This document shows, piece after piece, positions 1 through 63,229 of a stretch of 64,000 nt of DNA. The position numbers and the translations under genes were made by a program. The stretch spans positions 39,270 to 103,269 of IMG/VR virus record IMGVR_UViG_3300021168_000001, one strand, 5' to 3'. Under the pieces are notes generated by a model. The model saw only the letters and a program-made list of their open reading frames with translations, did not search any database and was not told where the DNA came from. Each line of letters starts with the position of its first letter. Position 1 is the stretch's first letter. The stretch is from a virus.

Positions 1-750
1 ATTCGCATCGACAAAGCCGGTGCGGAACACGCAATTTGGAAGCGCCACTACGTTGGAGAAGACTACCGGAGTTGCTGACAGCGCGGCAGTGGTGGCAAGA
101 GAAAGTGTGACCGCCGTGCCTGTAACCGCGGCGATCGATGTGCCTGGAGCGATTCCGGCGCCGGAGACCGACTGACCGGCCTTGAGGCCAGTTCCGGAAG
201 CCACAGTGAGCGCGGTCGATCCGGAGCTGGCGGTTCCGGTGGTGGATATGGTGTCCGAAGAAGGCGGAGCCGCTTCGATGTCTCCGACCGTGCCGCCTGG
301 AACGGCCGAGTTCAGCGCGAGGCGAGTATAAACCTGCCCTTGCGATAGCGGCACGCCGGCTGCCAATGGCACCGTCATGCTGCCACGCTCGAGGATTTCA
401 CCCATCTCACCGGGCACATAGTAGCCGACCTGCTGGATGCCAGGAGTTACGCCAGCTGGGTAGGTCACCTGTGTCTTCACTTCGCGGACCGCGAAGCCGC
501 CGAACTGAGCGGCCACCAAGCCAGCATTTGCGAAGGATGTTGCGATGAAATCCGCAATGGAGTCCATCGTGTCGCCGCCACCAGAACTGTTTGGGATGAT
601 CACGCAAGGTGCAGCAAAAGCCACGTTGCTCAATCCGGTGGGCAGCACTTGCCGGGCGGTAATAACGCGCTCGTCCAGCCTCGAAACGGAACCGTCAAAG
701 CCGATATTCGGCCCGGTAACCGGAATTACCTGTCCAAAGGAAGTCCCCAT
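1..750 (-). CDS. Head decoration/cement-like structural protein (runs off window edge)
   Basis: ATG at 750, right after the DUF2213 stop. Reads MGTSFGQVIPVTGPNIGFDGSVSRL...GEILERGSMTV and stays open toward base 1. This position between the DUF2213 protease and the capsid gene is typical. Not in the ORF track because it is truncated. Confidence 0.6.
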   Translation of the reverse strand, partial: MGTSFGQVIPVTGPNIGFDGSVSRLDERVITARQVLPTGLSNVAFAAPCVIIPNSSGGGDTMDSIADFIATSFANAGLVAAQFGGFAVREVKTQVTYPAGVTPGIQQVGYYVPGEMGEILERGSMTVPLAAGVPLSQGQVYTRLALNSAVPGGTVGDIEAAPPSSDTISTTGTASSGSTALTVASGTGLKAGQSVSGAGIAPGTSIAAVTGTAVTLSLATTAALSATPVVFSNVVALPNCVFRTGFVDAN

Positions 751-754
751 GGCT

Positions 755-2464
755 TTACTTCACCTCCGCTGTGATCTTTTTACCGTGGCGATTGTTGTAA
801 AACTCCTGGAGCTTCGTGATGTCGTCGCCGCCAGTCGCTCCACCACCGGCATCGGCTGCCCTCGCACGGCTCGCACCCGCGAAGCGCGCATATCCATTGC
901 CGCTTGTTGAGAATGAATTCCCACTCACGCGGCGCATCTGCGCGTTGAACGCCTTGATGAGCGCCGAATCACCGCTACGCGCGATCAGCGGCTTGATGGC
1001 GCGCAATGCTTCTCGGGCCGCGGCGTCGGCTGCCCTCGCGAACTCTGCCGTATCCCGCGCGCGCTTCTTGCGTGGATCACCACCCTTGGTTCGCTTATAG
1101 CCTTCAGAGCCGCGAATCGGATGGAAGTTTCCACCTTCCGAATAGCCCTCGACGTCATCGGCGCGCTTGCGATCGCCAGCGTGGACGACTTCAGGCTCAT
1201 CCTCTTCGTCGTACTCATCCTCATCGTCAGGATCGGCGTCGTCGCCCTCTGCGCCCTCTTCGGGAATCAGGTCAGGATTGTCGGCATCGCCGCTTTCTCC
1301 GCCTCCCTCACCTTCGTGCATCGGCTCGTGCTGTTCTTCCTGAAGGTAGTTGTCCATCAATTTGCGGAGCTCGGCGATATCGGCATCTTCGGACCGGCGA
1401 GACTTGGCGTCCATCATCTTGTCAAGTGCCGAATGCAGCCTTTCACGCTCTTCGTCAGGTTCACCATCGCCAGCCTTACGATCATCTGCGCGGCGGTCAT
1501 CGGAACGGCGACTATCGTCCGCTTTCCTGTCGTCGCTGCGGTGGCTATCGTCAGCGCGACGGTCATCGCTCTTTCGATCAGCGGCCTGCACAATTTTCGG
1601 CTCGGGTGGAATGTCCATCTGCGCTCCCTCATCGTTGGCTCGCGCGGTTCCGGTTCTGGTGACTTTGCTCAGCTCCAGAGCGGCATCGGCCAACGATTCA
1701 GGATCCACACTCTCATCTTTGGCCGCATGCTGCAGCCCGTGGCCAAAGATACTCTTAAGCGTGAGTTTCATCAGCTTTTTCTCCTGTGGTGGATCGTTCT
1801 TTGTTGACGTTGAGGTTGAGTTACTGGCTGGGGTTTGTGGCTCAGGCTCAACCGCAGCCTGTTCCTCAACCGTGGCCACTTCTGGAGCGGCATCCATAAT
1901 GCGTGCTTCGGGGCCCGCCCTACCCTTTGTAACCACGGCCACATGATTGCCGACCATGGAGACTTGGAGAACGACATCGCCATCGCGATCAATGCTGTAG
2001 TCGTAGCCGCACGATACTTCGCGTTTGCGATTCTTGAGAATCTCGGATATCAGGGGCTCCGCGGTAACAACCAGATCTCCGATGAGCGGCCACTCGCCAT
2101 CATCCAAAACGTCTTTACCTTTGCGAACGTTTTGCACATGGCCACGCGCCAGATCATTGAAGTTTTCTGGCGTCACGAATTCCATGTTTGGCGGGTGATT
2201 GTCGGTGACAGTGGCGGCTTCGAAGCTATGGATTGTGTCCGGATGAAATACCTCCTCCGGCGACCGATATAGACGCACCATCGCATTAGGATTTGAAGTG
2301 TCTATGCCGAGATCGTTGGCTCGCTCCTCGGGAAGCTCCGATACTTTGTAATCCTGAAATCCAGTTCTAGCTATTGTTACATCGTGGCAGACAATAGATC
2401 CGTTAGGCATCTGCGTGATGTTGTCGCTGAGCCGGCTTCCGAAGTACCCGATTCCTGTTTTCAT
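755..2464 (-). CDS. DUF2213-family head maturation protease/scaffold
   Basis: IARTGFQDY, RSPEEVF, VTDNHP, REVSCGY and NHVAVVTKGRAG motifs, then a low-complexity acidic scaffold-like tail. Confidence 0.85.
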   Translation of the reverse strand: MKTGIGYFGSRLSDNITQMPNGSIVCHDVTIARTGFQDYKVSELPEERANDLGIDTSNPNAMVRLYRSPEEVFHPDTIHSFEAATVTDNHPPNMEFVTPENFNDLARGHVQNVRKGKDVLDDGEWPLIGDLVVTAEPLISEILKNRKREVSCGYDYSIDRDGDVVLQVSMVGNHVAVVTKGRAGPEARIMDAAPEVATVEEQAAVEPEPQTPASNSTSTSTKNDPPQEKKLMKLTLKSIFGHGLQHAAKDESVDPESLADAALELSKVTRTGTARANDEGAQMDIPPEPKIVQAADRKSDDRRADDSHRSDDRKADDSRRSDDRRADDRKAGDGEPDEERERLHSALDKMMDAKSRRSEDADIAELRKLMDNYLQEEQHEPMHEGEGGGESGDADNPDLIPEEGAEGDDADPDDEDEYDEEDEPEVVHAGDRKRADDVEGYSEGGNFHPIRGSEGYKRTKGGDPRKKRARDTAEFARAADAAAREALRAIKPLIARSGDSALIKAFNAQMRRVSGNSFSTSGNGYARFAGASRARAADAGGGATGGDDITKLQEFYNNRHGKKITAEVK

Positions 2465-3567: not shown

Positions 3568-4017
3568 CTACTCAAGTCCTTTCCGGAAGTTCACGATCCA
3601 CGGTGCACCTAGCAGCTCCATGTGCGCCTTCATTGATACTTCGTTGTGTCCATGCACAGCTGCCGAAATGTGCTTCAGGCCGCGTGCCCGACATTCCTGT
3701 TCAAGCCGCTCGATCAATTTCCCATATAGACCGCGGCGCCGGTGGCGGAGGTCGGTCCATGCAAGGCCGATGAATGCACCATCACACCACTCCTGCCAAA
3801 TGATCATCGATATCGGCTCACCATCCTCATTGCGCATGAGGATCAGCGAATTGTCTTTTACGGGAAGATAGGAACCTCCGACATTTCCCATTTCGATCTT
3901 CAGGTCATGCGCTATGCCGTGGGCGATGCTGACACAGAATTCGAGGATGTTGGTATCCTCGATCGTTCCCATTACTTCGATCGTTTCGGTCACCGCGCGC
4001 ATAGGATTCCGAAGCAA
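3568..4017 (-). CDS. GNAT-family acetyltransferase
   Basis: Acetyl-CoA motif A HRRRGLYGKLI and the N of motif B (HGHNEVS). Confidence 0.7.
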   Translation of the reverse strand: MLRNPMRAVTETIEVMGTIEDTNILEFCVSIAHGIAHDLKIEMGNVGGSYLPVKDNSLILMRNEDGEPISMIIWQEWCDGAFIGLAWTDLRHRRRGLYGKLIERLEQECRARGLKHISAAVHGHNEVSMKAHMELLGAPWIVNFRKGLE

Positions 4018-4361
4018 TCGACGCGCACCAGGCCGCGTCCGGTTCCATCCTGCGGGTGCGGATCCCAGGCCATCTGTCCGTTCAATCCGACTACCGCATG
4101 CAAGTGCCCGCGTGGGCTCTTGCCCTCGATCGTGTGATACACGGGCCCATTCTTGAATGCCTGTTTCAACCCAGGCGAATCGATGTCAACCTGAATGTAA
4201 TAGAGGTTGAATTGCTTTAAAAAATCCTGAGTTTGACTTAGAAACAAATCGTCGGTAGCGAATTCAGGGACATCGGCTTCTTTTATTTCGAGGATCGATG
4301 CCAGACATGCCTGAAAACAGCGGCCATTTTTCCCGGTGCGGCTTTGCGTCTGTGGGATCAC
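3990..4361 (-). CDS. Hypothetical protein, possible papain-like (C39-like) fold
   Basis: N-terminal Q...GRCFQACLAS and C-terminal HAVV...WDP pattern. Confidence 0.45.
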   Translation of the reverse strand: MIPQTQSRTGKNGRCFQACLASILEIKEADVPEFATDDLFLSQTQDFLKQFNLYYIQVDIDSPGLKQAFKNGPVYHTIEGKSPRGHLHAVVGLNGQMAWDPHPQDGTGRGLVRVDCFGILCAR

Positions 4362-7300
4362 GCTTTCACCGCTCCGGCTGGTCTGTTGAGGTTTGCCGTC
4401 GCGAGCCAGTACTTGAAGTCATCGATTTGCATCGGCGAGATGTCCATCATCACTTCATCGGCACGGTGATGAGCTTTAGGATAGGCTCGTTTCACCTCGC
4501 CAAGCGTATCGAATCCCAGGAACACCTTGTGCTCATCGAATCCCTTAGAAGTATGCAGATGGCGCTGGTCAACGATATAAACCCAATCGCTCTCAGGGTC
4601 CGGCCCGATGTAACAATCGAGCGAATCACCATCGGCTCCGGTGAACCCTTCGATATATCCATAGTGTGCCGGCATCCGGACCGACCATCCTTTGCCCGAT
4701 CGAATATGGCCCTTGGGTGTCTCGACCACACACGTAAGACCATGAATGTTGAACTCCATCACGCCCGGGTCATCGGCGTCGGCGGCGCGCCCTGGCTCGT
4801 CCATTTCAAGCGGATCGAAGCCAAGCATGTCGATCACCGACCGCGGCGTGCGCTCGAGCTCTGCATCATCATCGACGTCGTCGAAGTCGCCTTCGTATTG
4901 GCGCCAGTCGTCATCGGTCCGCTGCGCCGATCCATAGTGCACTTCGGGCAATTCCACACCAAATGCCTTATCGAAGGCCTCTTTGAAGAAATTGAGTTTG
5001 GTATCTCCGGCCCTCGCCGGCTCGGCGCTGCCCTCGCTCGCAGATTTCCATCCCGAGAAGATCTGCGGAGGAATATAGGACTGCAACGCGACGATTGGTG
5101 TGTTGCCGAGTTTCTCGGAAACAGCCTTCGCAACCTCCATTACCGCTTTCTTGTACTCCTTCGGATTGGTCGGGGCTTTCACTTTCTCGACAAGGCCGTT
5201 CGCGGTCTCGGCCGCCAGCGCGGTGCGAAAGTCCTTTGTCTTGAAGCCGCCGTGATCGAGGTTGTCCTTCGTGAAGTCGCGCAGGCTCGCATCGCTCACG
5301 GACGGAAAGAGATTGCCTTTCTCACCGGCCTTGGCACGCAGCTCTTTCAGCATCGATCCAAGCTGTGCGTCCTCGACCGGCAACGATATAGTCACGCCCT
5401 TCTTCCCAACGAAGCGCAGTCGCACGCTGTTGCCAAGCTGCCATACATGATGCCCCTGCAAGGTCGACGCACCATAGGCCTTTACCGCGCCTCCCGTGTC
5501 CGAATCGCTGCCGGGCCGGATCCCAGTCTTGCGCACCAGGTACATGCAGTCGGCATGATCCCGTACCTTGGCGTCCTTACTCTTGCGGAAGCCGTCCAGC
5601 TGCTTGTCGATCAGGCTCATGTTCTTTTGCAGTGCCTGGACGCGCTGGAACTTCAGGTCCGCCTGGCTGTTCTTGAACGTAGGCGAGTAGACATATTGCT
5701 TGCGACCTTTCGAATCGAGACCGGTTGCCAACAGGTCGGCCTTTGGCATCGGCGAGATTCGAACATCCTTCCACGCTGGCGGGATCTTCAGCGACTTGGC
5801 ATGCTCCGGCCAGTCCTCGCGACTGGAGTAGGACTGAAGGTGCGCGGTCTTTGTCGATTCCTCGCCCCCCGAACCGCCAGTGCTTTCTTTATCGGGATCG
5901 CTGGACCCTTCGCCACCACCGGGCTCCTCACGCGGTCCCATGCCCTTCCGCCGACGCTCCCAGGCCTTCTTTGAAGCTTTTGAATCATCGGTCGCCCTAG
6001 CCACCGCAGATAGCGCTCGCTTCTCGGCGCGCTGCGGCCCGAACAGCTTCTGCATCGTCGCAAGGCGCTTGTCGTCCTGCTCCCCTTCAGGATCGCCGCC
6101 CGGCTCTTTGCCGCTCTCGCCCTTGCTCCCTTGTCCCTCTTCTTCTCCACCCTCGCCTGTAAGCGATTCAAGACCACCCTCGCCGCCGCCCTGCTCGCCC
6201 ATGCTCATGACGTCATCGGACAGAGCCGCGATCCGCTCATCGGTAAGATTCGTTCCGAAGCCAGTTGCGTCGGAGGCCTGCTTCACCTCTTCGGCGCCAG
6301 CCCGCGGCGACATGATGCCGAGGTTGATGGCGACCGCCACCGTATCAAGAGTGGCCTTGGCAAGCTCCGACTTTTCCTTTTCATCCAATACGCGGACGGA
6401 TGGGAAGTTGAGGTCCAGATCGTCGGGGATCTCACCGAGCTCCGACATGCAAAGCACCGGGTACAGTTTCTCGAGCTGTGGCCGCAGTTCAACGTCCTGG
6501 TCGGTGGCGATCTTCTCCTCGTAGATTCGCTCATCGGCATCGTTCGATTGCCCAAGTCCGCTGATCGTGCGCCCCCAAAGACGCGTGACCGGGATTTGTG
6601 TCGCACCTGAGATGTCCAACTGAAACTGCTGATAAACATCGCTGAGGCCGGTGAAGGTATAGTTCACGGCCTCGATCCCGCCATCGGCCGGAAGCGGCAC
6701 CAGGCTCTGGTTTGACAGCAAGTGGTTCAGGGTTGTCATGCGCTGCTGAAACTGTATCGCGGCTTGCTGGTTCATGCCGACGCCAGAAAGAACCTTTGCC
6801 AGTTCCGGAAACTTCATACCAAGAATGCAGGCGCGGAACGTGAGCGATAGTATGTTCCAACTCATGTTGTCGCGCTTGCGAATCTCTTCATAGGCCGGCT
6901 CGATCACCGATATGCCCCAGTAAGTCTGCGCCTCATACTCCGGCGTCGGCACCTCTGGCCCGCTGAAGCGCAGTATTCGCGACGAGTGCACTAGAAAACT
7001 CTCGGCATCCGGCGCAGTGACCCGGTACATCTCCGGCTTGTTGAAGTCGGTCGGCCGATTGATGTCCGTGCAGATATCGCCGTGCGGCTGAATGCCTGTC
7101 CAGCGATCGAACGGGATCAGGCCTTTGTAATCGCCGACGCCGATCGTGTCAGGATCCAGCGGCTCCTCGAGATTATCCTCTTGACCATCGATCACCATGA
7201 GTGCGCCGCCGCCCCCGAAAAGCCTCGCCCACTTCAGCGCACGGAGAAGCGTCGATTTGGTCTGCGTGCGGCGAATCTTGCGATCGATCTTTGTCAGATC

Positions 7301-7624
7301 TTCGGGAGGGATATCGCTCGTCAGCTTCGGCCAGGCCCTCACCATATCCTGCGCTGGCGTATCAACGATGCGCCGAGAAATCCAGTGGTTCCGATAGAGA
7401 GTTATCAGGAGCCAGTAGTTGAAGCTCAGCCTATCGAGTTCATACGTCGCTGCCTCGGCAAGATTTGGTGTGCCGTATCCCATGCGAGCCGGCACATTTG
7501 AAAAATAGTCGAATGCCTGCGCATCGAATCCTTGTCCGAAACCCATCCTCTGGAGCTGCGCCTGCCGCTCCATATCCGGATTGGTCCCAGCCCTGATCCT
7601 ACGGCGCTGCTGCAATTCAGGCAT
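4358..7624 (-). CDS. DUF1073 portal protein fused to DNA topoisomerase IB and an inorganic-pyrophosphatase-like domain
   Basis: About aa 1-470 portal (LYRNHWISRRIVD, ARLFGGG, VHSSRILRF, IPVTRLWG). About aa 600-865 TopIB (IPPAWKDV, GRKQYVY, GIRPG, KAYGASTL, KDFRT, LGNT...SYI). C-terminal ETPKG..RSG, HYGYIEG, GADGDSLD, FDEHKV. Confidence 0.85.
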   Translation of the reverse strand: MPELQQRRRIRAGTNPDMERQAQLQRMGFGQGFDAQAFDYFSNVPARMGYGTPNLAEAATYELDRLSFNYWLLITLYRNHWISRRIVDTPAQDMVRAWPKLTSDIPPEDLTKIDRKIRRTQTKSTLLRALKWARLFGGGGALMVIDGQEDNLEEPLDPDTIGVGDYKGLIPFDRWTGIQPHGDICTDINRPTDFNKPEMYRVTAPDAESFLVHSSRILRFSGPEVPTPEYEAQTYWGISVIEPAYEEIRKRDNMSWNILSLTFRACILGMKFPELAKVLSGVGMNQQAAIQFQQRMTTLNHLLSNQSLVPLPADGGIEAVNYTFTGLSDVYQQFQLDISGATQIPVTRLWGRTISGLGQSNDADERIYEEKIATDQDVELRPQLEKLYPVLCMSELGEIPDDLDLNFPSVRVLDEKEKSELAKATLDTVAVAINLGIMSPRAGAEEVKQASDATGFGTNLTDERIAALSDDVMSMGEQGGGEGGLESLTGEGGEEEGQGSKGESGKEPGGDPEGEQDDKRLATMQKLFGPQRAEKRALSAVARATDDSKASKKAWERRRKGMGPREEPGGGEGSSDPDKESTGGSGGEESTKTAHLQSYSSREDWPEHAKSLKIPPAWKDVRISPMPKADLLATGLDSKGRKQYVYSPTFKNSQADLKFQRVQALQKNMSLIDKQLDGFRKSKDAKVRDHADCMYLVRKTGIRPGSDSDTGGAVKAYGASTLQGHHVWQLGNSVRLRFVGKKGVTISLPVEDAQLGSMLKELRAKAGEKGNLFPSVSDASLRDFTKDNLDHGGFKTKDFRTALAAETANGLVEKVKAPTNPKEYKKAVMEVAKAVSEKLGNTPIVALQSYIPPQIFSGWKSASEGSAEPARAGDTKLNFFKEAFDKAFGVELPEVHYGSAQRTDDDWRQYEGDFDDVDDDAELERTPRSVIDMLGFDPLEMDEPGRAADADDPGVMEFNIHGLTCVVETPKGHIRSGKGWSVRMPAHYGYIEGFTGADGDSLDCYIGPDPESDWVYIVDQRHLHTSKGFDEHKVFLGFDTLGEVKRAYPKAHHRADEVMMDISPMQIDDFKYWLATANLNRPAGAVKA

Positions 7625-9410: not shown

Positions 9411-9778
9411 TGCGGCCTTGTCACGGCTGGCGCGTCAGCTGGATATTGTGCGTTCTCAAGCCTCTGCACTTTCGGAATTACATAGGAGTCCTGAGTCTGC
9501 GATACCTGCTGCAATTGAGACCGCATCGAGAGCACCTGTTCAACAAGATCACGCTGCCTCTGCGAGTCGTTCATTACCGATGCACGCACGGCCAACTCGA
9601 GGCGCCCCAGACGCTGGTCGATCTCTTCATCATGCCTCTCGTGCTCGAGAATCTGCCTGAGCGCCTGTGTCTGCCGGTCATCGGCATATTTATTTATCTT
9701 CGCCAGACCGCCAAAGATCGATCCGACAATCGTTAGAGCCGTGGCCACCGTCGCGAGAGTGATGTGTTTCGGCGTCAT
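9407..9778 (-). CDS. Single-TM coiled-coil protein (possible lysis accessory)
   Basis: ATG at 9778 overlaps the MuF stop (ATGA); N-terminal hydrophobic helix then heptads. Confidence 0.55.
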   Translation of the reverse strand: MTPKHITLATVATALTIVGSIFGGLAKINKYADDRQTQALRQILEHERHDEEIDQRLGRLELAVRASVMNDSQRQRDLVEQVLSMRSQLQQVSQTQDSYVIPKVQRLENAQYPADAPAVTRPQ

Positions 9779-10623
9779 GCCGCTGTGCGCTCCTTCATCC
9801 CGCTCAGGTTCCTGAAAGCGATTCGAGTCATGCTCATGATCCGGCCGTTCCGATGAACGCGGTGTGGCCATTTCACATCATCGAGTGTGAGCAGCGGAGA
9901 TTGAGGACAACGACAATTTGGAAAAGTTCCTCCGTGCCCACGTCCCAATGTGCTTTTCTCTCCAATTAAAGCCTCTGGCGATGGCGGGTCATCATAGAAC
10001 ACGATCACACCTTCCATATTTTTATGACTCGGCCTCACCCTCGTATCTTCCGACGTCAACCATTCGTAGCACGGTAGCCCGAGATGCTCGGCGCGCGCCT
10101 GCGTGAGAGCCGCGCTTGCCTTCATCGTTTCGGTCCGCGCGATCAGATTAATCCTGGTTCGCGTGAGTTGCGGAAACCGGTGTCGCATCATCTTGGCGAT
10201 CGCTTCCGGCCGGGCCCCTGCCTGCTGCGCCTCCGCGATCTCGCCCGTCAACTGCTGAGCGACCTTTCGCGGAATACTCGAGATATAGGCCGCATTCTCA
10301 TCAACTATCCTGCGAAGTGCAATCCCGACCGGCCCGGCCATTTCCCGCTGCAGGAGCCGATGTAACATTGAGCTCCGTTGCGCCCGCGTCGCCGCTTCAC
10401 GCCAGGTTCTCGCGTTCAGCACGTTGACCCACCGGCCCATCTCGCCGGCGACATAGGCTGCGGCATCAGCAACGTCTCGCCGCTCGCTCACCGCCGCCAG
10501 TTCTGCAATCCACTGCTCGAAGCTTACATCCGGCTTGCGTTGGGGGATGCTCGACAACATGAGTCTGCGGATCAGCCGCTGATACTCGAGTTCGATCCGT
10601 CGCGTAACCGTAAAGTCACTCAT
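9775..10623 (-). CDS. MuF / SPP1 gp7-like minor head morphogenesis protein
   Basis: RINLIARTE, YEWLTSEDTRVRPSH and PNCRC signature motifs. Confidence 0.9.
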   Translation of the reverse strand: MSDFTVTRRIELEYQRLIRRLMLSSIPQRKPDVSFEQWIAELAAVSERRDVADAAAYVAGEMGRWVNVLNARTWREAATRAQRSSMLHRLLQREMAGPVGIALRRIVDENAAYISSIPRKVAQQLTGEIAEAQQAGARPEAIAKMMRHRFPQLTRTRINLIARTETMKASAALTQARAEHLGLPCYEWLTSEDTRVRPSHKNMEGVIVFYDDPPSPEALIGEKSTLGRGHGGTFPNCRCPQSPLLTLDDVKWPHRVHRNGRIMSMTRIAFRNLSGMKERTAA

Positions 10624-18787: not shown

Positions 18788-20122
18788 TCACGCCGCCAAG
18801 AGTCGATAATCCGAAAACACTTCTTCAACCCCGTACCGCAGCGCATCGCACCCATGGTCGTTCGTTTTTATCGGTGCCTCTTCGCCGCGCTTAATCGCGT
18901 CCGGATCCCACATATACGACGGCAGTTCGCGAATCAGCTCTTCGCATTCGGCACTGATCCGAATCCGTCTTTGAGTAAGCACGCTCGAGGTCTTGCGGAT
19001 CCCATCGAGCACATCGTTGTTGGCATCCACTACCCAGAGATTTGCAGCTGACAACTCATTGCGAAAGCTGGCGGCCGAAGGATCGAGAACGATGCGCGGC
19101 TGGCTGCGCCGTTGCACGCGCGATACACTCACAATGCCGGCTGTGTTCTTGTAGCCGTCTGGACTAAGCCAGCAAACGATGTCGTCTTTGTACTGCGAGT
19201 CTGTCTTTTGACGCATCTCCTTCGCGGAGTCCCACCAATACTGACGATCGATCCAAAGCGTCTTGCCGTCGTCAATTGCCTCGAGCGCCGTGCACGGGTT
19301 GGCCGTGCCATAGTCCATGAAGACGATGTGGTCGACATAACCGCCAAATCCATAGAGCCCTGGCCCGATCTCTTCAGGGTGGTAAATCAGATCGGATGAC
19401 CAGGCACTGCCATAGATTGCGCCTTCGGCTGCGACCCATCGGCCGAGAATGTAACGCAGAAAGAAGACGCCGCTTTGCGAAGCTTTGATCGTTCGCTTTG
19501 AATTCGGGTCCAGGTTCGGATTGTCGTCCAGCGTGAACTCGATGTGCGTTAGGTCCGGCTTGAAGCTTTTGCCATCGATGACTTCGGTCTTCAGGTAGTG
19601 CGTCGGCGGGCCCGGGTTTGTGGTTCCGTAGAACCGCGATCCTTTTGGCGAAAGCCGCTGCATCAGAACAAAGAAGAAGGACCGCGGCCACTCGATCACC
19701 TCATCCCCGATCGCAACACCAATCGTCATTCCCAGAATGTTCGTGTATGACGCCTCATCGTTGGCGCCAATCACGAACCATTGAACTCCGGCGCCGTTCT
19801 CACCCAGAAACAGCCAGAGCTCACCGGTTGACTGATTGTAGGAGTACTTGTCTTTACCGATGATTTCGAACAGGTCGATGAGAATGTTCTTGTGAACCTT
19901 GCCCTTCGACTTGCCGATAATGACGCGCCGGCCCTCCACCTTGTATCGGCAGAGGTGAAGAATCACCTTCGCTGTAACGGCCCAGGTCTTGGCGGACCGG
20001 ACGGACCCGACAAGAATGTTGTACTTTCTGTCGAGCTCGGGCGGGTGCATGATGAACGCGTGCGCCTTGCGTCCGAACTGTTTAACTTTTTGTACAGGAG
20101 CAATCGACGTCCCGGTTGCCAA
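18788..20122 (-). CDS. terL: Terminase large subunit (PBSX-like)
   Basis: GSVRSAKT Walker A, AIGDE Walker B, GTTNP, MDYGTANP, DPSAASF and NDHGCDALRY nuclease motifs. Confidence 0.95.
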   Translation of the reverse strand: MATGTSIAPVQKVKQFGRKAHAFIMHPPELDRKYNILVGSVRSAKTWAVTAKVILHLCRYKVEGRRVIIGKSKGKVHKNILIDLFEIIGKDKYSYNQSTGELWLFLGENGAGVQWFVIGANDEASYTNILGMTIGVAIGDEVIEWPRSFFFVLMQRLSPKGSRFYGTTNPGPPTHYLKTEVIDGKSFKPDLTHIEFTLDDNPNLDPNSKRTIKASQSGVFFLRYILGRWVAAEGAIYGSAWSSDLIYHPEEIGPGLYGFGGYVDHIVFMDYGTANPCTALEAIDDGKTLWIDRQYWWDSAKEMRQKTDSQYKDDIVCWLSPDGYKNTAGIVSVSRVQRRSQPRIVLDPSAASFRNELSAANLWVVDANNDVLDGIRKTSSVLTQRRIRISAECEELIRELPSYMWDPDAIKRGEEAPIKTNDHGCDALRYGVEEVFSDYRLLAA

Positions 20123-28616: not shown

Positions 28617-28750
28617 TTTCCCTTTGCAGATCGTTCGGCAATTCATTGATTGTGAGAATCGGGTTCGAACCGATTACCTACTGATTTGACTGTCAGTTGC
28701 TCTTCCAAATGAGCTACCTCGCATGTACGCCACCCAGTAGCAAAGGGAAA
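28617..28750 (-). ncRNA. Y-RNA-like element 2 carrying a full non-permuted tRNA-like cloverleaf (28651-28723)
   Basis: 11-bp stem TTTCCCTTTGC/GCAAAGGGAAA; CTGGGTGGCGTACATG and GCCGAACGATCT motifs; D, anticodon and T arms in canonical order. Confidence 0.8.
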
Positions 28751-37781: not shown

Positions 37782-38416
37782 CTGTCTACGCTTTAGGTTC
37801 GGACGGCGCGAACGGCACCAACGTTGGCATCTTCACATCGGAGGCTGACCTTTACCGCGCCCTGGCAGATGACATCTGCTCGCCTGCCGAATTGGATAAG
37901 GCGCGAGCACTGATCGACGCTGGAAACATCGAAGGGGCCAAGGAATTCCTCATCGATGAAGTCTCGCCACCTGAGTTCTACACTTTCTCAATCGATGAGA
38001 AAGATGTTACATCCGTGCAGAACAGCGCAGCCATTACTGTACTTCGAGCGATGCGCGAAGAACTCGAAGCCATGTCCGGCTATTGGACAGAGCGTATGTC
38101 CACACTCGCGCAGGCCGCTGACGAAGTTTTGACACCGCCGCCAGCATCATCCAATGCGTTGCCAGCAAGCACTAGACCGGAGTTGCCAGAAGAATCGCAA
38201 GAGGTTGAGGTCCGCATCCGCCTTGACGTGTGGGACTTTGAGCAATTCCGCGAGGCCGCACGCAAGCGAGCTCTCGAAGACGGTCTGGACGAAGAAGAGG
38301 CTGCGGAGTATCTCGACGAAGAAGAGAAGAGTATCGGCGAGTGCGCAATGATGCTCCTCGATCCCGGTGTCGGTCCCGCAGGTTCTGACGTCGAAGAATC
38401 CTCATGCATCGAATAG
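37778..38416 (+). CDS. Acidic hypothetical protein
   Basis: ATGA-coupled 212 aa ORF. Confidence 0.6.
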   Translation: MTVYALGSDGANGTNVGIFTSEADLYRALADDICSPAELDKARALIDAGNIEGAKEFLIDEVSPPEFYTFSIDEKDVTSVQNSAAITVLRAMREELEAMSGYWTERMSTLAQAADEVLTPPPASSNALPASTRPELPEESQEVEVRIRLDVWDFEQFREAARKRALEDGLDEEEAAEYLDEEEKSIGECAMMLLDPGVGPAGSDVEESSCIE

Positions 38417-38453
38417 AACCGGCAGCGGAGCCGCTGCACAGAGAACCTTCCCC

Positions 38454-39200
38454 ATGGAAAAATCCATAATCGCGTGGACTGACAACACGTTCAACCCCTG
38501 GATGGGCTGCATGAAGGTCTCGGCCGGATGCAAGAATTGTTACGCCGAGACTCTAACCAAGAATCGAATGGGCCTCGACCTGTGGGGTCCGAACAGCACC
38601 CGCCAGGTGACTAGCGACTCGTATTGGAAGCAGCCATTTAAGTGGGCACGGGAGGCCAAGAAAGCTGGCGCGCGGCGGCGAGTCTTCTGCGGTTCTCTCT
38701 GCGACATCTTCGAATCCCATCCGATCGCCGACGAGACTCGCCCGAGGGTATGGGACATCATCAAAGCCACACCGGAGCTCGACTGGCAGCTGCTCACCAA
38801 ACGGCCGGAGAACATTGCAGCGCGGCTTCCGAAACAATGGCCACTGCCTAACGTTTGGCTCGGCACATCGATCGAAGATCGGAAGGCCTGCGCACGGCGC
38901 GACATTTTGGTGCAGGTTCCAGCTGTCGTCCATTTCCTCTCGCTGGAACCACTGCTCGAAGATATCGCTAGCACGCTCAACCTTGAAGACATCGAGTGGG
39001 CCCTGATCGGCGGCGAGAGCGGCCCTGGATACCGTCCCATGGATCACCAATGGGCTCGCAATTTGCAAGAGGCGTGCAAGAAGTCCGGCACCGCATTCTT
39101 CTTCAAACAGTCGGCTGCATTCCGCACTGAGATGGGAATCGAGCTCGACGGTCATATTGCCCGGTCCTACCCAACACCGCAGTTCAATATCTTGGTATGA
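38454..39200 (+). CDS. DUF5131 (phage Gp37/Gp68) three-Cys-motif protein
   Basis: IAWTDNTFNPWMGCMKVSAGCKNCYA, LLTKRPEN, SLEPLL, GGESG, FFFKQ. Confidence 0.92.
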   Translation: MEKSIIAWTDNTFNPWMGCMKVSAGCKNCYAETLTKNRMGLDLWGPNSTRQVTSDSYWKQPFKWAREAKKAGARRRVFCGSLCDIFESHPIADETRPRVWDIIKATPELDWQLLTKRPENIAARLPKQWPLPNVWLGTSIEDRKACARRDILVQVPAVVHFLSLEPLLEDIASTLNLEDIEWALIGGESGPGYRPMDHQWARNLQEACKKSGTAFFFKQSAAFRTEMGIELDGHIARSYPTPQFNILV

Positions 39201-44878: not shown

Positions 44879-47071
44879 ATGACTGAAGTACGAGACATCA
44901 AGCACTTCCACTTTTGCTGCGGCGTTGGCGGTGCCGCCCTTGGTTTCAATCGCGGACGGGCAGAGGCGAACGGCCTGCGCGGAAACTTCCGCTGCCTTGG
45001 CGGGGTCGACTGCGATCCGGCCGTCATCCGCGACTTCACCCGGCGCACTGGGACCCGCGGAACCGTGCTCGATCTCTTCGACCACCAACAGTACGCCGAC
45101 TTTCACGGACACCTGCCTCCAGCCGATTGGCGCGAGGCCACACCCGAGGACATCCAACGCGCTGCTGGCTACGAACGGCCGAACCTTGTCTTCATCTCTG
45201 CGCCGTGCAAGGGATTCAGCGGGCTGCTCTCCGAGAGCCGCTCTAAGTCCGGAAAGTATCAGGCTCTCAACCAACTCGCGCTGCGCTGCATATGGCTCAT
45301 GTGCGAGGCATGGTCCGACGATCCGCCCGAGCTTATCGTCTTCGAGAATGTGCCGCGCATTGCCACGCGAGGCCGATCACTTCTCGATCGCATCTCCGCT
45401 CTGGCCAACGCCTATGGCTACGCCTGCGCCGAGACCTTCCACGACTGCGGAGAGATTGGAGGCCTTGCCCAATCTCGCAAGCGATTCCTCATGGTAATGC
45501 GCCACGTCGCCAAGGTACCGGCATTCCTCTACGAGCCACCGAAGCGGCCACTTCGCGCGGTCGGCGAGATCCTCGAGCAGCTTCCGCTGCCAGGCGACAT
45601 GCGCGGCGGCCCGATGCACTCGCTGCCAAACCTTCAGTGGAAGACATGGGTACGCCTCGCGTTCGTCGAGGCCGGGTCGGACTGGCGATCGCTCAACAAG
45701 CTACGCGTGGTCGACGGCAAGCTGGCCGACTATCTGCTAATCCCGGAGCGGCTGCGCAATGACAATCTCGGCGTGACCGAGTGGACTGAACCTTCCGGCA
45801 CCATCACCGGAGACGCGCGCACGGGCAAAGGCGGATTTGCAGTCGCGGATCCCAGGTGCGACGGCGAGCACTCGTATTCACAGTATGGTGTGCGCAGCTG
45901 GAATCAGCCCAGCGCAACACTCACCGCACACCGCTCTCCAGGTCAGGGCCCATTCTCTGTGGCCGATCCTCGCGCCGCTTCTAAGGTGTTCAGCGGCCAC
46001 GGCGTTGCATCATGGGATGCTCCGAGCGGTGCGGTCGCCGGCGAGAGCTGGCCAACGAATGGGCAATTCGCGGTCGCGGACCCGCGCTTCAGCTACGGCG
46101 AGCACACACACAAGAATGTGTTTCGTGTGGTGCACTGGGACGAAGCCAGCCAGACCATCTCGAGCGGCCACGGCCCATCATCGGGCGGCATGAACGTTGC
46201 CGATCCCAGGTTCTCTACGTCCGACAACTCGCACCAGAACATCATGCGAATCGTCGGCTATGATGAGCCAGCCAACGCAATCACTGGCGCGTCACACGTA
46301 ACCGGAGGAGCATCATGCATCGCCGACCCCCGCACTGGTTGGGCCCGACACAGCAATAACCTTACCGTGGAGCGCTGGGACGAACCATCAAAGACCGTCA
46401 TCGGCGGCGGCAAAGGCGTGCAAGGCGGCTGGCTTTCGATCGCCGATCCGCGGTGGCCGAACTCCCAAGGCGAGCACACCGGCAAATACCACGTCATCCC
46501 TTACGACGAACCGGCGCGAACCATTACCGGCAATGACCGCATCGGCAGCGGTGCGCTCTGCGTCGCTGATCCCCGCGCTGGCTTGAAGAACAGAAACGGC
46601 CAGGACCGCGAGAAGGGCGACGACTACCTCACTGGCGGTCAGTACGGCGTGGTTCCCTGGACGAACCCATCGTATGCAGTTTCCGGCGCCGCCCAGCATG
46701 ACAGCGGACCATGGAACGTGGCCGACCCGCGCATGCCGGAACCTGCAGAAAAGGTCTCGGCGTTGATCATCTCTCTCGACAACACTTGGCACCGGCCATT
46801 CACCACACTCGAGCTCGCCGCGCTCCAGTCGCTCGTTGACCCGGGCGAGCTCTTCGGGCCGGAGGCCTTCAATTACGATGGCAAGTCCGATTCGGCCAAG
46901 CGCGAACGCATCGGCAACGCTGTGCCGCCAGCCGCTGCGCAAGCCATCGCCGACACCATGGGCCACACGCTGCTTCTCGCATGGTCCGGCCAAACCTTCG
47001 CACTCTCTTGCCTACCGATTTGGGTGCGCCCCGTCGCAGTGGCCTTGAGCGTAGACGTACCAGTGGAGTGA
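44879..47071 (+). CDS. DNA cytosine-C5 methyltransferase with 8 internal ADPR repeats
   Basis: FCCGVGG (I), SAPCKGFS (IV), FENV (VI), QSRKR (VIII), IGNAVPP (X). Confidence 0.9.
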   Translation: MTEVRDIKHFHFCCGVGGAALGFNRGRAEANGLRGNFRCLGGVDCDPAVIRDFTRRTGTRGTVLDLFDHQQYADFHGHLPPADWREATPEDIQRAAGYERPNLVFISAPCKGFSGLLSESRSKSGKYQALNQLALRCIWLMCEAWSDDPPELIVFENVPRIATRGRSLLDRISALANAYGYACAETFHDCGEIGGLAQSRKRFLMVMRHVAKVPAFLYEPPKRPLRAVGEILEQLPLPGDMRGGPMHSLPNLQWKTWVRLAFVEAGSDWRSLNKLRVVDGKLADYLLIPERLRNDNLGVTEWTEPSGTITGDARTGKGGFAVADPRCDGEHSYSQYGVRSWNQPSATLTAHRSPGQGPFSVADPRAASKVFSGHGVASWDAPSGAVAGESWPTNGQFAVADPRFSYGEHTHKNVFRVVHWDEASQTISSGHGPSSGGMNVADPRFSTSDNSHQNIMRIVGYDEPANAITGASHVTGGASCIADPRTGWARHSNNLTVERWDEPSKTVIGGGKGVQGGWLSIADPRWPNSQGEHTGKYHVIPYDEPARTITGNDRIGSGALCVADPRAGLKNRNGQDREKGDDYLTGGQYGVVPWTNPSYAVSGAAQHDSGPWNVADPRMPEPAEKVSALIISLDNTWHRPFTTLELAALQSLVDPGELFGPEAFNYDGKSDSAKRERIGNAVPPAAAQAIADTMGHTLLLAWSGQTFALSCLPIWVRPVAVALSVDVPVE

Positions 47072-60824: not shown

Positions 60825-61295
60825 ATGGGTAAATCGAAGATCACAACACTGCTCCTACTCGCCGCAGTAATCCAGCTCGCCGGTTGCCAGCAACCGATTT
60901 TTCAGAATGGCGCTCATCCAACCGTGCGCTACGGTTACTACCGTTTGCATCCGCATCGATTCTCCTGCAAAGACGATCCCTATTCCTGCAAGGAATGTCC
61001 GGTTGGCAAGCCCGATCGCGTCATTCACCTGAAGCACGGAAACTACCGCGACGTGCCTGTCGAGGTTAACCTGTTCTTTGCCTGCGACGAAATCAACATG
61101 CTTGTGCCCGAGCACGGTCCAGGCGTGTACTCGGATGAATTCGTTTGCCAACGCGAGCCGCAGGATGGGTTCATCGAAATGGGTGGCCATACCTACTCAT
61201 GCGCACAGTCTCCGCAACCAGATAAGTTCAGCCTCGGCACCCTTAAACCCGGCGAGACTAAGACCCTTACCATTCCGATCGAGCCACCAAAATGA
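60825..61295 (+). CDS. Putative lipoprotein
   Basis: MGKSKITTLLLLAAVIQLAG|C lipobox. Confidence 0.55.
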   Translation: MGKSKITTLLLLAAVIQLAGCQQPIFQNGAHPTVRYGYYRLHPHRFSCKDDPYSCKECPVGKPDRVIHLKHGNYRDVPVEVNLFFACDEINMLVPEHGPGVYSDEFVCQREPQDGFIEMGGHTYSCAQSPQPDKFSLGTLKPGETKTLTIPIEPPK

Positions 61296-63229
61296 AAGAG
61301 AGAATCTTAAACATTTCGCGCGAGCTCGCGCTCCCCGTAAATGCTGTTACGTCCACTCTGCTGGTCTACGGCGGCAAAGGGATGGGCAAGAGCACGCTCG
61401 GCACCATCCTTCTTGAAGAGATGACGCGCGTTGGATCTCGCTGGGCCGCACTTGATCCGATGGGAGTGCTGTGGGGCATTCGCCACTCCATCGACGGCAA
61501 AGGTTCAGGCATCGAATGCCTGATCCTGGGAGGTCCTCACGGTGATCTACCGATCGAGCCAACTGCAGGCGCGGTGGTCGCAGACCTGGTGGCCGACAAT
61601 GATGTGAACGTAGTTATCGATATCAGCCGCAAGCCTAACGGCGAGATGTGGGGAGTAGGTGAGCGAATAAAATTCGTCACCGAATACGGCAAGCGCCTCT
61701 TTGCCCGCCAAGGAAGTATTGTCGACGGCCGGAGACGAGATCCTCTTTTCCAGCTTATCGATGAAGCTGCGCGGTTCATGCCACAGACAATCCGCCAGGG
61801 TGAGTTAGAGGTGGCAAAGTGCATGAGCGTTTGGGCGACCATCGTTGAGGAAGGCCGTAACATTGGTCTCGGCGTCGGACTGCTCACCCAGCGGAGCGCG
61901 CGCCTCAGCAAAGACGTTGCGGAACTCGCCGACATCATGTTCGCCTTCCGGACGGTGGGCCCCAACTCCTTGAGCGCGGTCCTTGACTGGCTTGGCGAGC
62001 ACGTTCCCAAGGAACGCATCAAGACCATGGTGGAGATAGTCCGGTCGCTTCCGGTTGGCGCCTGTCTCGCGGTCTCTCCCGGCTGGCTGAAACATGAAGG
62101 CGTGATCCACATCCGCGCGCGGGAGACGTTTGACTCCGGCGCCACCCCGAAAGCCGGCGAGCGCAGCCGCAGGGTGAGCGGTAACGGCGCAAAGCCGGTG
62201 GACCTTAAAAGGTACGCCGAGCGGATGAAGGAGACGATCGAACGCGCAGAAGCCGAGAATCCGGCCCTGCTCCGTTCGCAGATCTCGAAGCTAAAGGCCG
62301 AGAGAGATACGCTCCAGATCAAGTTAGAGACAGCCGCGGTAAAGTTGGACACGGCCGCTTCAATGAAGCCGGTGAACCAGGTACCCGACCCGAAGGCTAT
62401 CGCCGAGCTTCGTGCGATCCTGCTCTCAGATTGCTCACAGGCTCTGCGAGAGAGCATTGGCTCTCGTTTGCTTGGGCAGGTTGGCGAGGCAATTCGCCAT
62501 TTGCATGCAACAGCCGAAAATTTTCAGGCTATCGCCAATGAGGTTGATTCGCCGCGACTCTGGACAGTCGTTCCCCGCCCCAACATTGACAGCGGAATAA
62601 AGGGTGTCCGGCTGATTCCTACGCCTGCCATCCCGGCCCGGCCACAGCCTGCCATTCCTGCGCCTGCGAATTCCAGGCCACTACCCCACGCGAAAAACGG
62701 TCCGATGCCTACAAAGGGCAAATACGGCCCTTCCACGGACACTCTAAACGCCTCTTTTTCACATCCCCAAGTCAGAATCCTTGACGCTCTCGCCAAGGGC
62801 GAATCCATCGGCCGAAAGGCGCTCACCCGGACGTGGGCGGCATTCCTCGCGAGCGCTAGCCCGAAGTCCAGTGCCTACGTCAACAATCTGGGCGCGCTGC
62901 GCTCGGCGGGCATGATTGACTACCCAGAACAAGGAAAGGTGTGCCTTACCGACGCCGGCCGGAAAACGGTTGGCGGTATCCCGCAACCGATGAACGAAGA
63001 AGAGTTGCATGCCGAGATTCTCTCGATGCTTACCAATCCACAGCAGGCCATCATGGGAACTCTGCTCAGGCTGCGCGGGTCCGAACTGTCACGCGCGGAT
63101 CTGGCTCATGCTGCCGGTGCCAGTCCCACATCGAGCGCATACGTGAACAACCTCGGCGCTCTGCGGTCCCTTGGTCTGGTCGACTACGGCACAGGAACGG
63201 TCCGTGCCAGGGAGGATTTGTTCTTATGA
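61292..63229 (+). CDS. HerA/FtsK-superfamily ATPase with two C-terminal winged-helix-like repeats
   Basis: GGKGMGKS, LIDEA, EGRNIG, LTQRSA; duplicated ASPxSSAYVNNLGALRS.G..DY. Confidence 0.8.
   Translation: MKERILNISRELALPVNAVTSTLLVYGGKGMGKSTLGTILLEEMTRVGSRWAALDPMGVLWGIRHSIDGKGSGIECLILGGPHGDLPIEPTAGAVVADLVADNDVNVVIDISRKPNGEMWGVGERIKFVTEYGKRLFARQGSIVDGRRRDPLFQLIDEAARFMPQTIRQGELEVAKCMSVWATIVEEGRNIGLGVGLLTQRSARLSKDVAELADIMFAFRTVGPNSLSAVLDWLGEHVPKERIKTMVEIVRSLPVGACLAVSPGWLKHEGVIHIRARETFDSGATPKAGERSRRVSGNGAKPVDLKRYAERMKETIERAEAENPALLRSQISKLKAERDTLQIKLETAAVKLDTAASMKPVNQVPDPKAIAELRAILLSDCSQALRESIGSRLLGQVGEAIRHLHATAENFQAIANEVDSPRLWTVVPRPNIDSGIKGVRLIPTPAIPARPQPAIPAPANSRPLPHAKNGPMPTKGKYGPSTDTLNASFSHPQVRILDALAKGESIGRKALTRTWAAFLASASPKSSAYVNNLGALRSAGMIDYPEQGKVCLTDAGRKTVGGIPQPMNEEELHAEILSMLTNPQQAIMGTLLRLRGSELSRADLAHAAGASPTSSAYVNNLGALRSLGLVDYGTGTVRAREDLFL

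Follow-up and report, generated by a model that had tools for sequence, protein, structure and literature searches.

The last 64 kb of an IMG/VR record of an uncultured soil phage (IMGVR_UViG_3300021168_000001; 103,269 bp, with direct terminal repeats and rated 100% complete) encode a portal protein that carries a type IB topoisomerase (TopIB), a small acidic module, and a pyrophosphatase-like (InPase-like) domain behind it in a single polypeptide of 1088 amino acids. This stretch of 64,000 nucleotides is referred to as the window, and the protein is referred to as P0001. Its sequence features and those of its relatives suggest, with moderate confidence, that the portal carries the enzymes into the prohead as cargo, where cleavage releases them for delivery together with the DNA. 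New in this phage, as judged from its sequence, would be the union of portal, TopIB, acidic partner, and InPase in one polypeptide with a readable predicted cleavage code.

The gene for P0001 is an uninterrupted open reading frame (ORF), as the initial annotation of this DNA had claimed. It lies on the minus strand and starts with ATG at 7624, with GGAG 10 nucleotides 5' of the start codon. Its TGA stop codon overlaps the GTG start of the next gene, which encodes a 123-amino-acid protein. A second assembler (Logan) produced a 25.6-kb contig with a depth of about 12 that covers the entire ORF with zero differences; the contig comes from the probable source run, a soil metagenome, and is independent as an assembly but not as a sample. 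Two runs of other soil studies, one an RNA library and one a DNA library, contain identical pieces of the gene, none of which extends across a domain junction, and these runs give neither evidence of transcription nor a second line of support for the fusion.

Pfam confirms the portal, TopIB, and InPase-like domains that the initial annotation had named. The portal match covers positions 3-356 of the 357 in the PF06381 profile, and PHROGs places the protein in the portal family phrog_146 (E 1.5e-103) and its tail in the minor head protein family phrog_4660. The portal part resembles the solved portals of Pa193, E217, and Pam3 (E 1.2e-36 for Pam3 in a sequence search of the PDB). No other portal match was found among the scanned head-region ORFs, the only part of the 103-kb genome in which portals were looked for. 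The InPase-like domain scores 114.6 bits against PF18823, for which the curated cutoff is 26.8. It holds E969, DGDSLD (998-1003), and DEHK (1030-1033), candidates for the acidic metal ligands of type I pyrophosphatases in columns that are conserved in about 22 homologues, and it aligns with the C-terminal domain of Pa193 gp19. Its best PDB match to a characterized pyrophosphatase is weak (E 0.27). No peptidase domain was found in P0001 by Pfam or PHROGs. The acidic, glycine-rich linker reported behind the portal is present, with 27 glycines, 19 glutamates, and 14 serines among the 131 residues from 470 to 600. A second linker had been proposed between TopIB and InPase. There is indeed a region between these domains, but it is not a plain linker, since a conserved acidic module occupies residues 891-940.

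The TopIB part looks catalytically competent by sequence. Pfam finds Top1B_N_bact (PF21338) at residues 610-637 (E 3.7e-09) and Topoisom_I (PF01028) at residues 649-845 (E 2.5e-19). Among solved structures the best sequence match is the TopIB of D. radiodurans (E 2.2e-20), and variola TopIB is also matched. The pentad R703/K741/R800/N841/Y850 aligns with R137/K174/R239/N280/Y289 of the D. radiodurans enzyme (2f4q) and is invariant in 120 of 120 long homologues. Four of the five catalytic residues had been named correctly at the outset. The lysine had been placed in KAYG, but that residue (K715) is variable in the homologues, with K in 90 and Q in 24, while K741 in FVGKKG is invariant. The possibility that the TopIB is inactive and serves only to bind DNA was rejected in view of the invariant pentad. 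AlphaFold modeled residues 589-881 with a predicted local distance difference test score (pLDDT) of 86.9. When this model was compared with solved structures by Foldseek, it matched the variola TopIB-DNA complexes 2h7f and 3igc with template modeling scores of 0.70-0.71, and it also matched 2f4q and 3m4a.

The TopIB belongs to a phage-type group that is distinct from the cellular enzymes. Phage-type TopIBs are 44-69% identical to that of P0001, versus 28-35% for cellular TopIBs, and in a FastTree tree of 115 TopIB domains the cellular enzymes form one side of a branch with 97% support. The portal-fused state changes at least nine times on this tree. At least 282 IMG/VR contigs encode the phage-type enzyme. 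When the TopIB part was searched against long proteins only, 319 relatives were retrieved, and architectures were tallied by hand on the best 120 using Pfam. The DUF1073 portal is joined to TopIB in 64 of these, 16 of which also have the InPase domain. The fusion is real, and portal-TopIB proteins are common in metagenomes. TopIB is found with NUDIX in 19 of the 120, with ADP-ribosyltransferase in five, with MuF in four, with DUF2213 in three, and with one of three other portal families in four. Shorter, stand-alone forms of TopIB gave 1,176 matches.

The genomic context of the phage-type TopIB was studied in 80 loci, and 31 of them have a portal fusion. Where the TopIB gene stands alone it is still found among genes for portal, MuF, protease, capsid, and InPase. 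The same parts are arranged in different ways. Two loci (L002 and L003), the closest relatives at 64-69% identity, have a portal-TopIB ORF that ends after TopIB and a separate, overlapping ORF for the module and InPase. Two others (L009 and L064) have portal-InPase followed by TopIB, another (L016) has portal, InPase, and TopIB as separate genes, and 15 proteins have portal-InPase-TopIB in one ORF. Among the homologues compared, the order portal-TopIB-module-InPase is found only in this phage. The taxon names of homologues from NCBI and of metagenome-assembled genomes are scattered over Polyangia, Elusimicrobia, Paceibacterota, Gammaproteobacteria, and others, and point to no single host.

The acidic module accompanies the phage-type TopIB and is absent from cellular TopIB loci. 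This segment of about 50 residues is kept in many more proteins than the InPase domain is. A profile of the module matched directly after TopIB (-60 to +400 nucleotides) in 65 of the 78 viral loci with room for it and in nine of nine phage-type TopIB loci in metagenome-assembled genomes; the same profile search found it at none of 71 cellular TopIB loci. Most relatives encode the module in a small ORF of its own, whose start overlaps the 3' end of the TopIB gene in one or the other alternative frame. Since the offset can be +1 or -1, programmed frameshifting from TopIB into the module was rejected as a general rule. The module is in frame behind TopIB in 14 proteins, including P0001, where a bridge of about 27 residues containing RAGD joins the two; this bridge is absent from the closest relatives.

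A search of 1.84 billion representative sequences with the module profile found 988 clusters. Among the best 150 of these, 109 have 110 or fewer residues, the median length is 62 residues, and the median isoelectric point (pI) is 4.1. In longer proteins the module is at the extreme N-terminus, before a DUF2213 protease, ADP-ribosyltransferase, NUDIX, Zeta toxin, or InPase. The LGFDP motif is invariant across the partners of TopIBs that are 47-69% identical. No family for the module was found in Pfam or PHROGs. Matches to GST_C_7 and PBP1_TM (E about 0.03-0.05) were dismissed as noise. When AlphaFold modeled residues 589-950, the module's LGFDP end reached pLDDT values of 76-87 and its N-terminal half 36-53, and the loop after the catalytic R703 went from 56 to 70 once the module was included. 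This pattern is compatible with docking of the module on TopIB. The acidic partner is most likely a cognate regulator of TopIB. It may be an inhibitor that prevents the enzyme from acting on DNA inside the head as well as in the producing cell, or it may be an adaptor for assembly.

In most homologues TopIB is preceded by a short tag, EF.E..HPR...G.F, which also heads stand-alone TopIBs. It is found as well before other cargo domains that follow the acidic module. In P0001 the tag (window 5918-5971) is degenerate, with GPREEPG at residues 563-569. The tag, the TopIB, and the LGFDP peptide may form a previously undescribed cassette in many uncultured tailed phages, in which the peptide would act as a plug or inhibitor until cleavage and ejection free the TopIB; we offer this as a tentative proposal. 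Phage virions would then deliver an active topoisomerase much like poxviruses, and P0001 would hold the entire device, with its cleavage sites, in a single chain.

The domain borders of P0001 carry candidate sites for the head protease. All three [RK]AxD motifs of the protein (at 543, 871, and 946) are in the interdomain 21% of its residues; shuffled sequences give an expectation of 0.93 motifs. The last of them has a counterpart, RATD or RAQD, in the separate module-InPase proteins of the two closest relatives. Five head genes account for 20 of the 37 [RK]AxD motifs of the genome (Fisher p = 1e-10), and RAxD occurs 15 times in 3,432 residues of the head module versus six times in 28,223 other residues, a 20-fold excess. 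In the linkers of 62 portal-TopIB homologues, with P0001 excluded, [RK]AxD is enriched 6.3-fold (p = 2e-8). In the capsid protein, RAFD occupies residues 29-32 and is immediately followed by a conserved block (AAGASGFAFLQS). At this junction its relatives in four loci (L002, L014, L025, and L066) keep Ala or Ser after R-(A/G)-x-D or, at the minimum, after x-x-D, and the conserved block that follows reads (A/S)xG.(A)FL..(E)LE. This suggests that an N-terminal propeptide of about 30 residues is removed from the capsid protein after Asp. A head protease with cleavage after Asp would be expected to leave such a distribution of the motif. Because RAxD is enriched in head genes and the capsid protein has such a site before its predicted mature N-terminus, the DUF2213 head protease, whose gene is about 2 kb downstream of that of P0001, probably cleaves at the [RK]AxD borders, after D546, D874, and D949. 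The DUF2213 protease-scaffold protein itself contains 10 of the 20 head-gene motifs. Its residues from about 300 to 335 form tandem RSDDR(R/K)ADD repeats with four [RK]AxD motifs within about 30 residues.

These features can be assembled into a proposed mechanism, in which P0001 would be a portal whose C-terminal extension is a train of cargo. Packaging into the head is the natural reading of the architecture. Solved homologues form a dodecameric ring with the C-terminus inside (PMC11456595), and because this C-terminus (crown and barrel) faces the head interior, each prohead would receive twelve copies of the cargo: twelve each of TopIB, the acidic partner, and the InPase-like phosphohydrolase. 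The DUF2213 protease would cut after RATD (546), RAGD (874), and RAAD (949) and free the enzymes, which would then share the head with the DNA and enter the host with it on ejection. In the host the TopIB would relax supercoils of the entering genome or of the host chromosome. The initial annotation had proposed that the topoisomerase is packaged with the portal ring, either to relax DNA during packaging or to be injected for early transcription or circularization. The position of TopIB on the interior side of the capsid agrees with this proposal, but the protease sites suggest release of the enzyme and not action while tethered.

Several observations weigh against this mechanism. The [RK]AxD cleavage code is statistical, and many homologues have no such motif in their linkers. 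The presence of the module at the head of longer proteins is just as compatible with a leader or targeting peptide as with a regulator of TopIB. For the domain junctions of P0001, confirmation comes solely from assemblies that probably derive from a single sample. Finally, tblastn searches with the whole protein and with TopIB alone found no portal-TopIB protein in 50,697 GenBank phage records; the only TopIB match was in Bacteroides phage BS162P1, at 28% identity.

One alternative is that the TopIB is a toxin-like effector, delivered chiefly to harm or silence the host, that relaxes or nicks the host chromosome or counters a defense, with the acidic protein as its immunity protein or antitoxin, as in the polymorphic toxins borne by MuF proteins. 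TopIB is the last domain in most of the fusion proteins and is directly followed by the small overlapping ORF, it is co-fused with ADP-ribosyltransferase, NUDIX, and Zeta toxin domains, and the partner is absent from cellular TopIB loci, all of which would suit an effector. However, the partner is highly conserved, as the invariant LGFDP motif shows, while immunity proteins evolve fast. In P0001 the partner is joined to TopIB in cis, so that both would be packaged together, and the module also heads other head proteins. In addition, an enzyme that relaxes DNA would be at most mildly toxic. We regard an effector of this kind as unlikely.

Another alternative is a packaging swivel, in which TopIB stays at the portal, tethered or bound close by, and nicks and reseals the incoming DNA to relieve the twist that arises from the terminase motor and from spooling in the head, with no role in the host. 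The portal fusion is the commonest long architecture, and in all but one of the tabulated portal-fused ORFs the TopIB is C-terminal to the portal, by homology the side where the DNA emerges. The linkers are long and flexible, and type IB topoisomerases, which act through a 3'-phosphotyrosyl intermediate, require neither ATP nor Mg. But the predicted protease sites flank TopIB, fusion to the portal arose or disappeared repeatedly, and the same TopIB also occurs on MuF, protease, NUDIX, or ADP-ribosyltransferase proteins or alone. The conserved acidic partner also suggests an enzyme that is restrained, not one at work during assembly. Because of the cleavage sites, the fusions to MuF, DUF2213, NUDIX, and ADP-ribosyltransferase, and the stand-alone TopIB genes in head modules, delivery is favored, and a swivel at the portal seems quite improbable. 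That P0001 is an artifact, in which two separate genes, one for portal-TopIB and one for module-InPase, were merged through a fault in assembly or sequencing, gains something from the two overlapping ORFs of the closest relatives and from the presence of exactly this protein in only one cluster member, but it is very improbable, as two assemblers gave identical sequence with no variant or indel at this depth, the join is the bridge with a well-formed RAGD and not a one-base slip, and 13 other proteins have the module in frame behind TopIB.

The proposed delivery of TopIB with the phage DNA can be compared with several known systems. Poxvirus topoisomerase IB is present in the virus particle, where it is a free protein in the core, and aids early transcription. 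The TopIB of P0001 shares the fold and the chemistry of the vaccinia and variola enzymes (2h7f, 3igc). In contrast to them, it has Asn in place of the pentad His, as do bacterial enzymes, and it is fused to a portal and has a partner peptide. It resembles bacterial TopIB such as that of D. radiodurans (2f4q, 3m4a) in its two-domain clamp and R-K-R-N-Y pentad, although the cellular enzymes, on the other side of the well-supported branch of the tree, lack the acidic module at all 71 loci searched. The internal proteins of T4 and the inner-body proteins of phiKZ are prohead cargo that is trimmed by the maturation protease at a short motif also used on the capsid protein. The system proposed here differs in its motif, [RK]-A-x-D cut after Asp, in its DUF2213 protease, and in loading by fusion to the portal with no targeting leader.

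A further parallel is offered by the polyvalent proteins, in which several enzyme domains follow a head protein in a single chain and should enter the virion and be injected (Iyer et al. 2017, PMC5512222). A portal-InPase fusion, BcepF1.124, is already known (PMC5512222). TopIB is not among the domains listed in the survey of polyvalent proteins, where the word topoisomerase occurs only in the title of one reference (PMC5512222). Like these proteins, P0001 has at least two effector domains, TopIB and InPase, tied to a virion protein. Unlike them it has no peptidase (MPTase) of its own, its release is predicted at head-protease sites, and an acidic partner of TopIB has been added. P0001 also resembles gp19 of Pseudomonas phage Pa193, a PB1-like portal and its closest relative among solved portals, in which a DUF1073 portal is likewise followed at the C-terminus by an InPase-like domain (two matched stretches, E 1.2e-41). 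In the virion map of the Pa193 portal (PDB 9b41), residues 529-765 of gp19, beyond the barrel, have no density (PMC11456595). P0001 differs from this portal in its TopIB and acidic module, and the portal identity is low, about 25% by tblastn to PB1-like phages.

Table. Features of P0001 and its neighborhood. Positions are those of the window unless stated otherwise; products are those predicted for cleavage at the three candidate sites.
Feature	Residues	Position	Strand	Remarks
P0001 ORF, portal-TopIB-acidic module-InPase-like	1-1088	4358..7624	-	TGA stop at 4358-4360
Portal domain, DUF1073/Phage_portal_3	73-430	6335..7408	-	Pfam E 2.6e-93
Linker 1	471-609	5798..6214	-	Gly/Glu/Ser-rich; holds RATD and the degenerate tag
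RATD, predicted head-protease site, portal/TopIB	543-546	5987..5998	-	
TopIB, N-terminal beta domain and catalytic domain	610-862	5039..5797	-	Y850 codon 5075-5077
RAGD, predicted protease site	871-874	5003..5014	-	In the bridge of about 27 residues
Conserved acidic module	891-940	4805..4954	-	Motifs VHYG, DWR, acidic run, TP, LGFDP
RAAD, predicted protease site, module/InPase	946-949	4778..4789	-	
InPase-like domain, PF18823	957-1074	4403..4756	-	Pfam E 3.8e-33
Predicted product, portal	1-546			60.6 kDa, pI 4.75
Predicted product, TopIB	547-874			35.6 kDa, pI 9.6
Predicted product, acidic module	875-949			8.6 kDa, pI 4.1
Predicted product, InPase	950-1088			15.5 kDa, pI 5.5
123-aa protein, PHROG 5845 (unknown function)		3990..4361	-	Kept directly after the cassette in relatives
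GNAT acetyltransferase		3568..4017	-	Within the head module, between portal cassette and protease
DUF2213 head-maturation protease		755..2464	-	Scaffold-like C-terminal half with 10 [RK]AxD; presumed processing enzyme
Capsid protein		contig 38110-39177		Just upstream of the window start
MuF-like head morphogenesis protein		9775..10623	-	Head module
Terminase large subunit		18788..20122	-	Head module
Tag examples in relatives		L009:6782-8113, L038:6753-7976, L050:6771-8102		

The gene for P0001 lies within the head module of the genome, flanked on one side by the MuF and terminase genes and on the other by those for the DUF2213 protease and the capsid protein. A plus-strand ORF of 558 amino acids at 4298-5974, antisense to the portal gene, is taken to be a chance ORF (57% G+C; no library scan). 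Other parts of the window include a tRNA-like gene at 28650-28723 on the minus strand, for which ARAGORN calls a four-base anticodon (gtca), and a large DNA methyltransferase at 44879-47071. The plus-strand gene at 36427-37374 matches queuine tRNA-ribosyltransferase (phrog_1279, E 1.7e-14), and its product may be DpdA-like and modify the phage DNA with 7-deazaguanine. A weak second match to the terminase large subunit (phrog_2666, E 5e-10) is found at 61292-63229 on the plus strand, far from the head module and adjoining genes for RecT and an exonuclease.

A topoisomerase in the virion is textbook knowledge for poxviruses, while for phages full-text searches of the literature collection covered found no report of a packaged TopIB. 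P0001 is a compact object for testing, as the enzyme, its partner, and three predicted cut sites are in one gene with the protease nearby. The apparent [RK]AxD rule for the DUF2213 protease also helps in annotating the mature proteins of related phages. If the proposed mechanism is true, a large group of phages from soil and other environments injects a DNA-relaxing enzyme with the genome, and the effector systems fused to portal and MuF proteins gain a new cargo class that brings along a small regulator. This would bear on how phage DNA is made ready for transcription, circularization, or replication, or on how host DNA is disabled.

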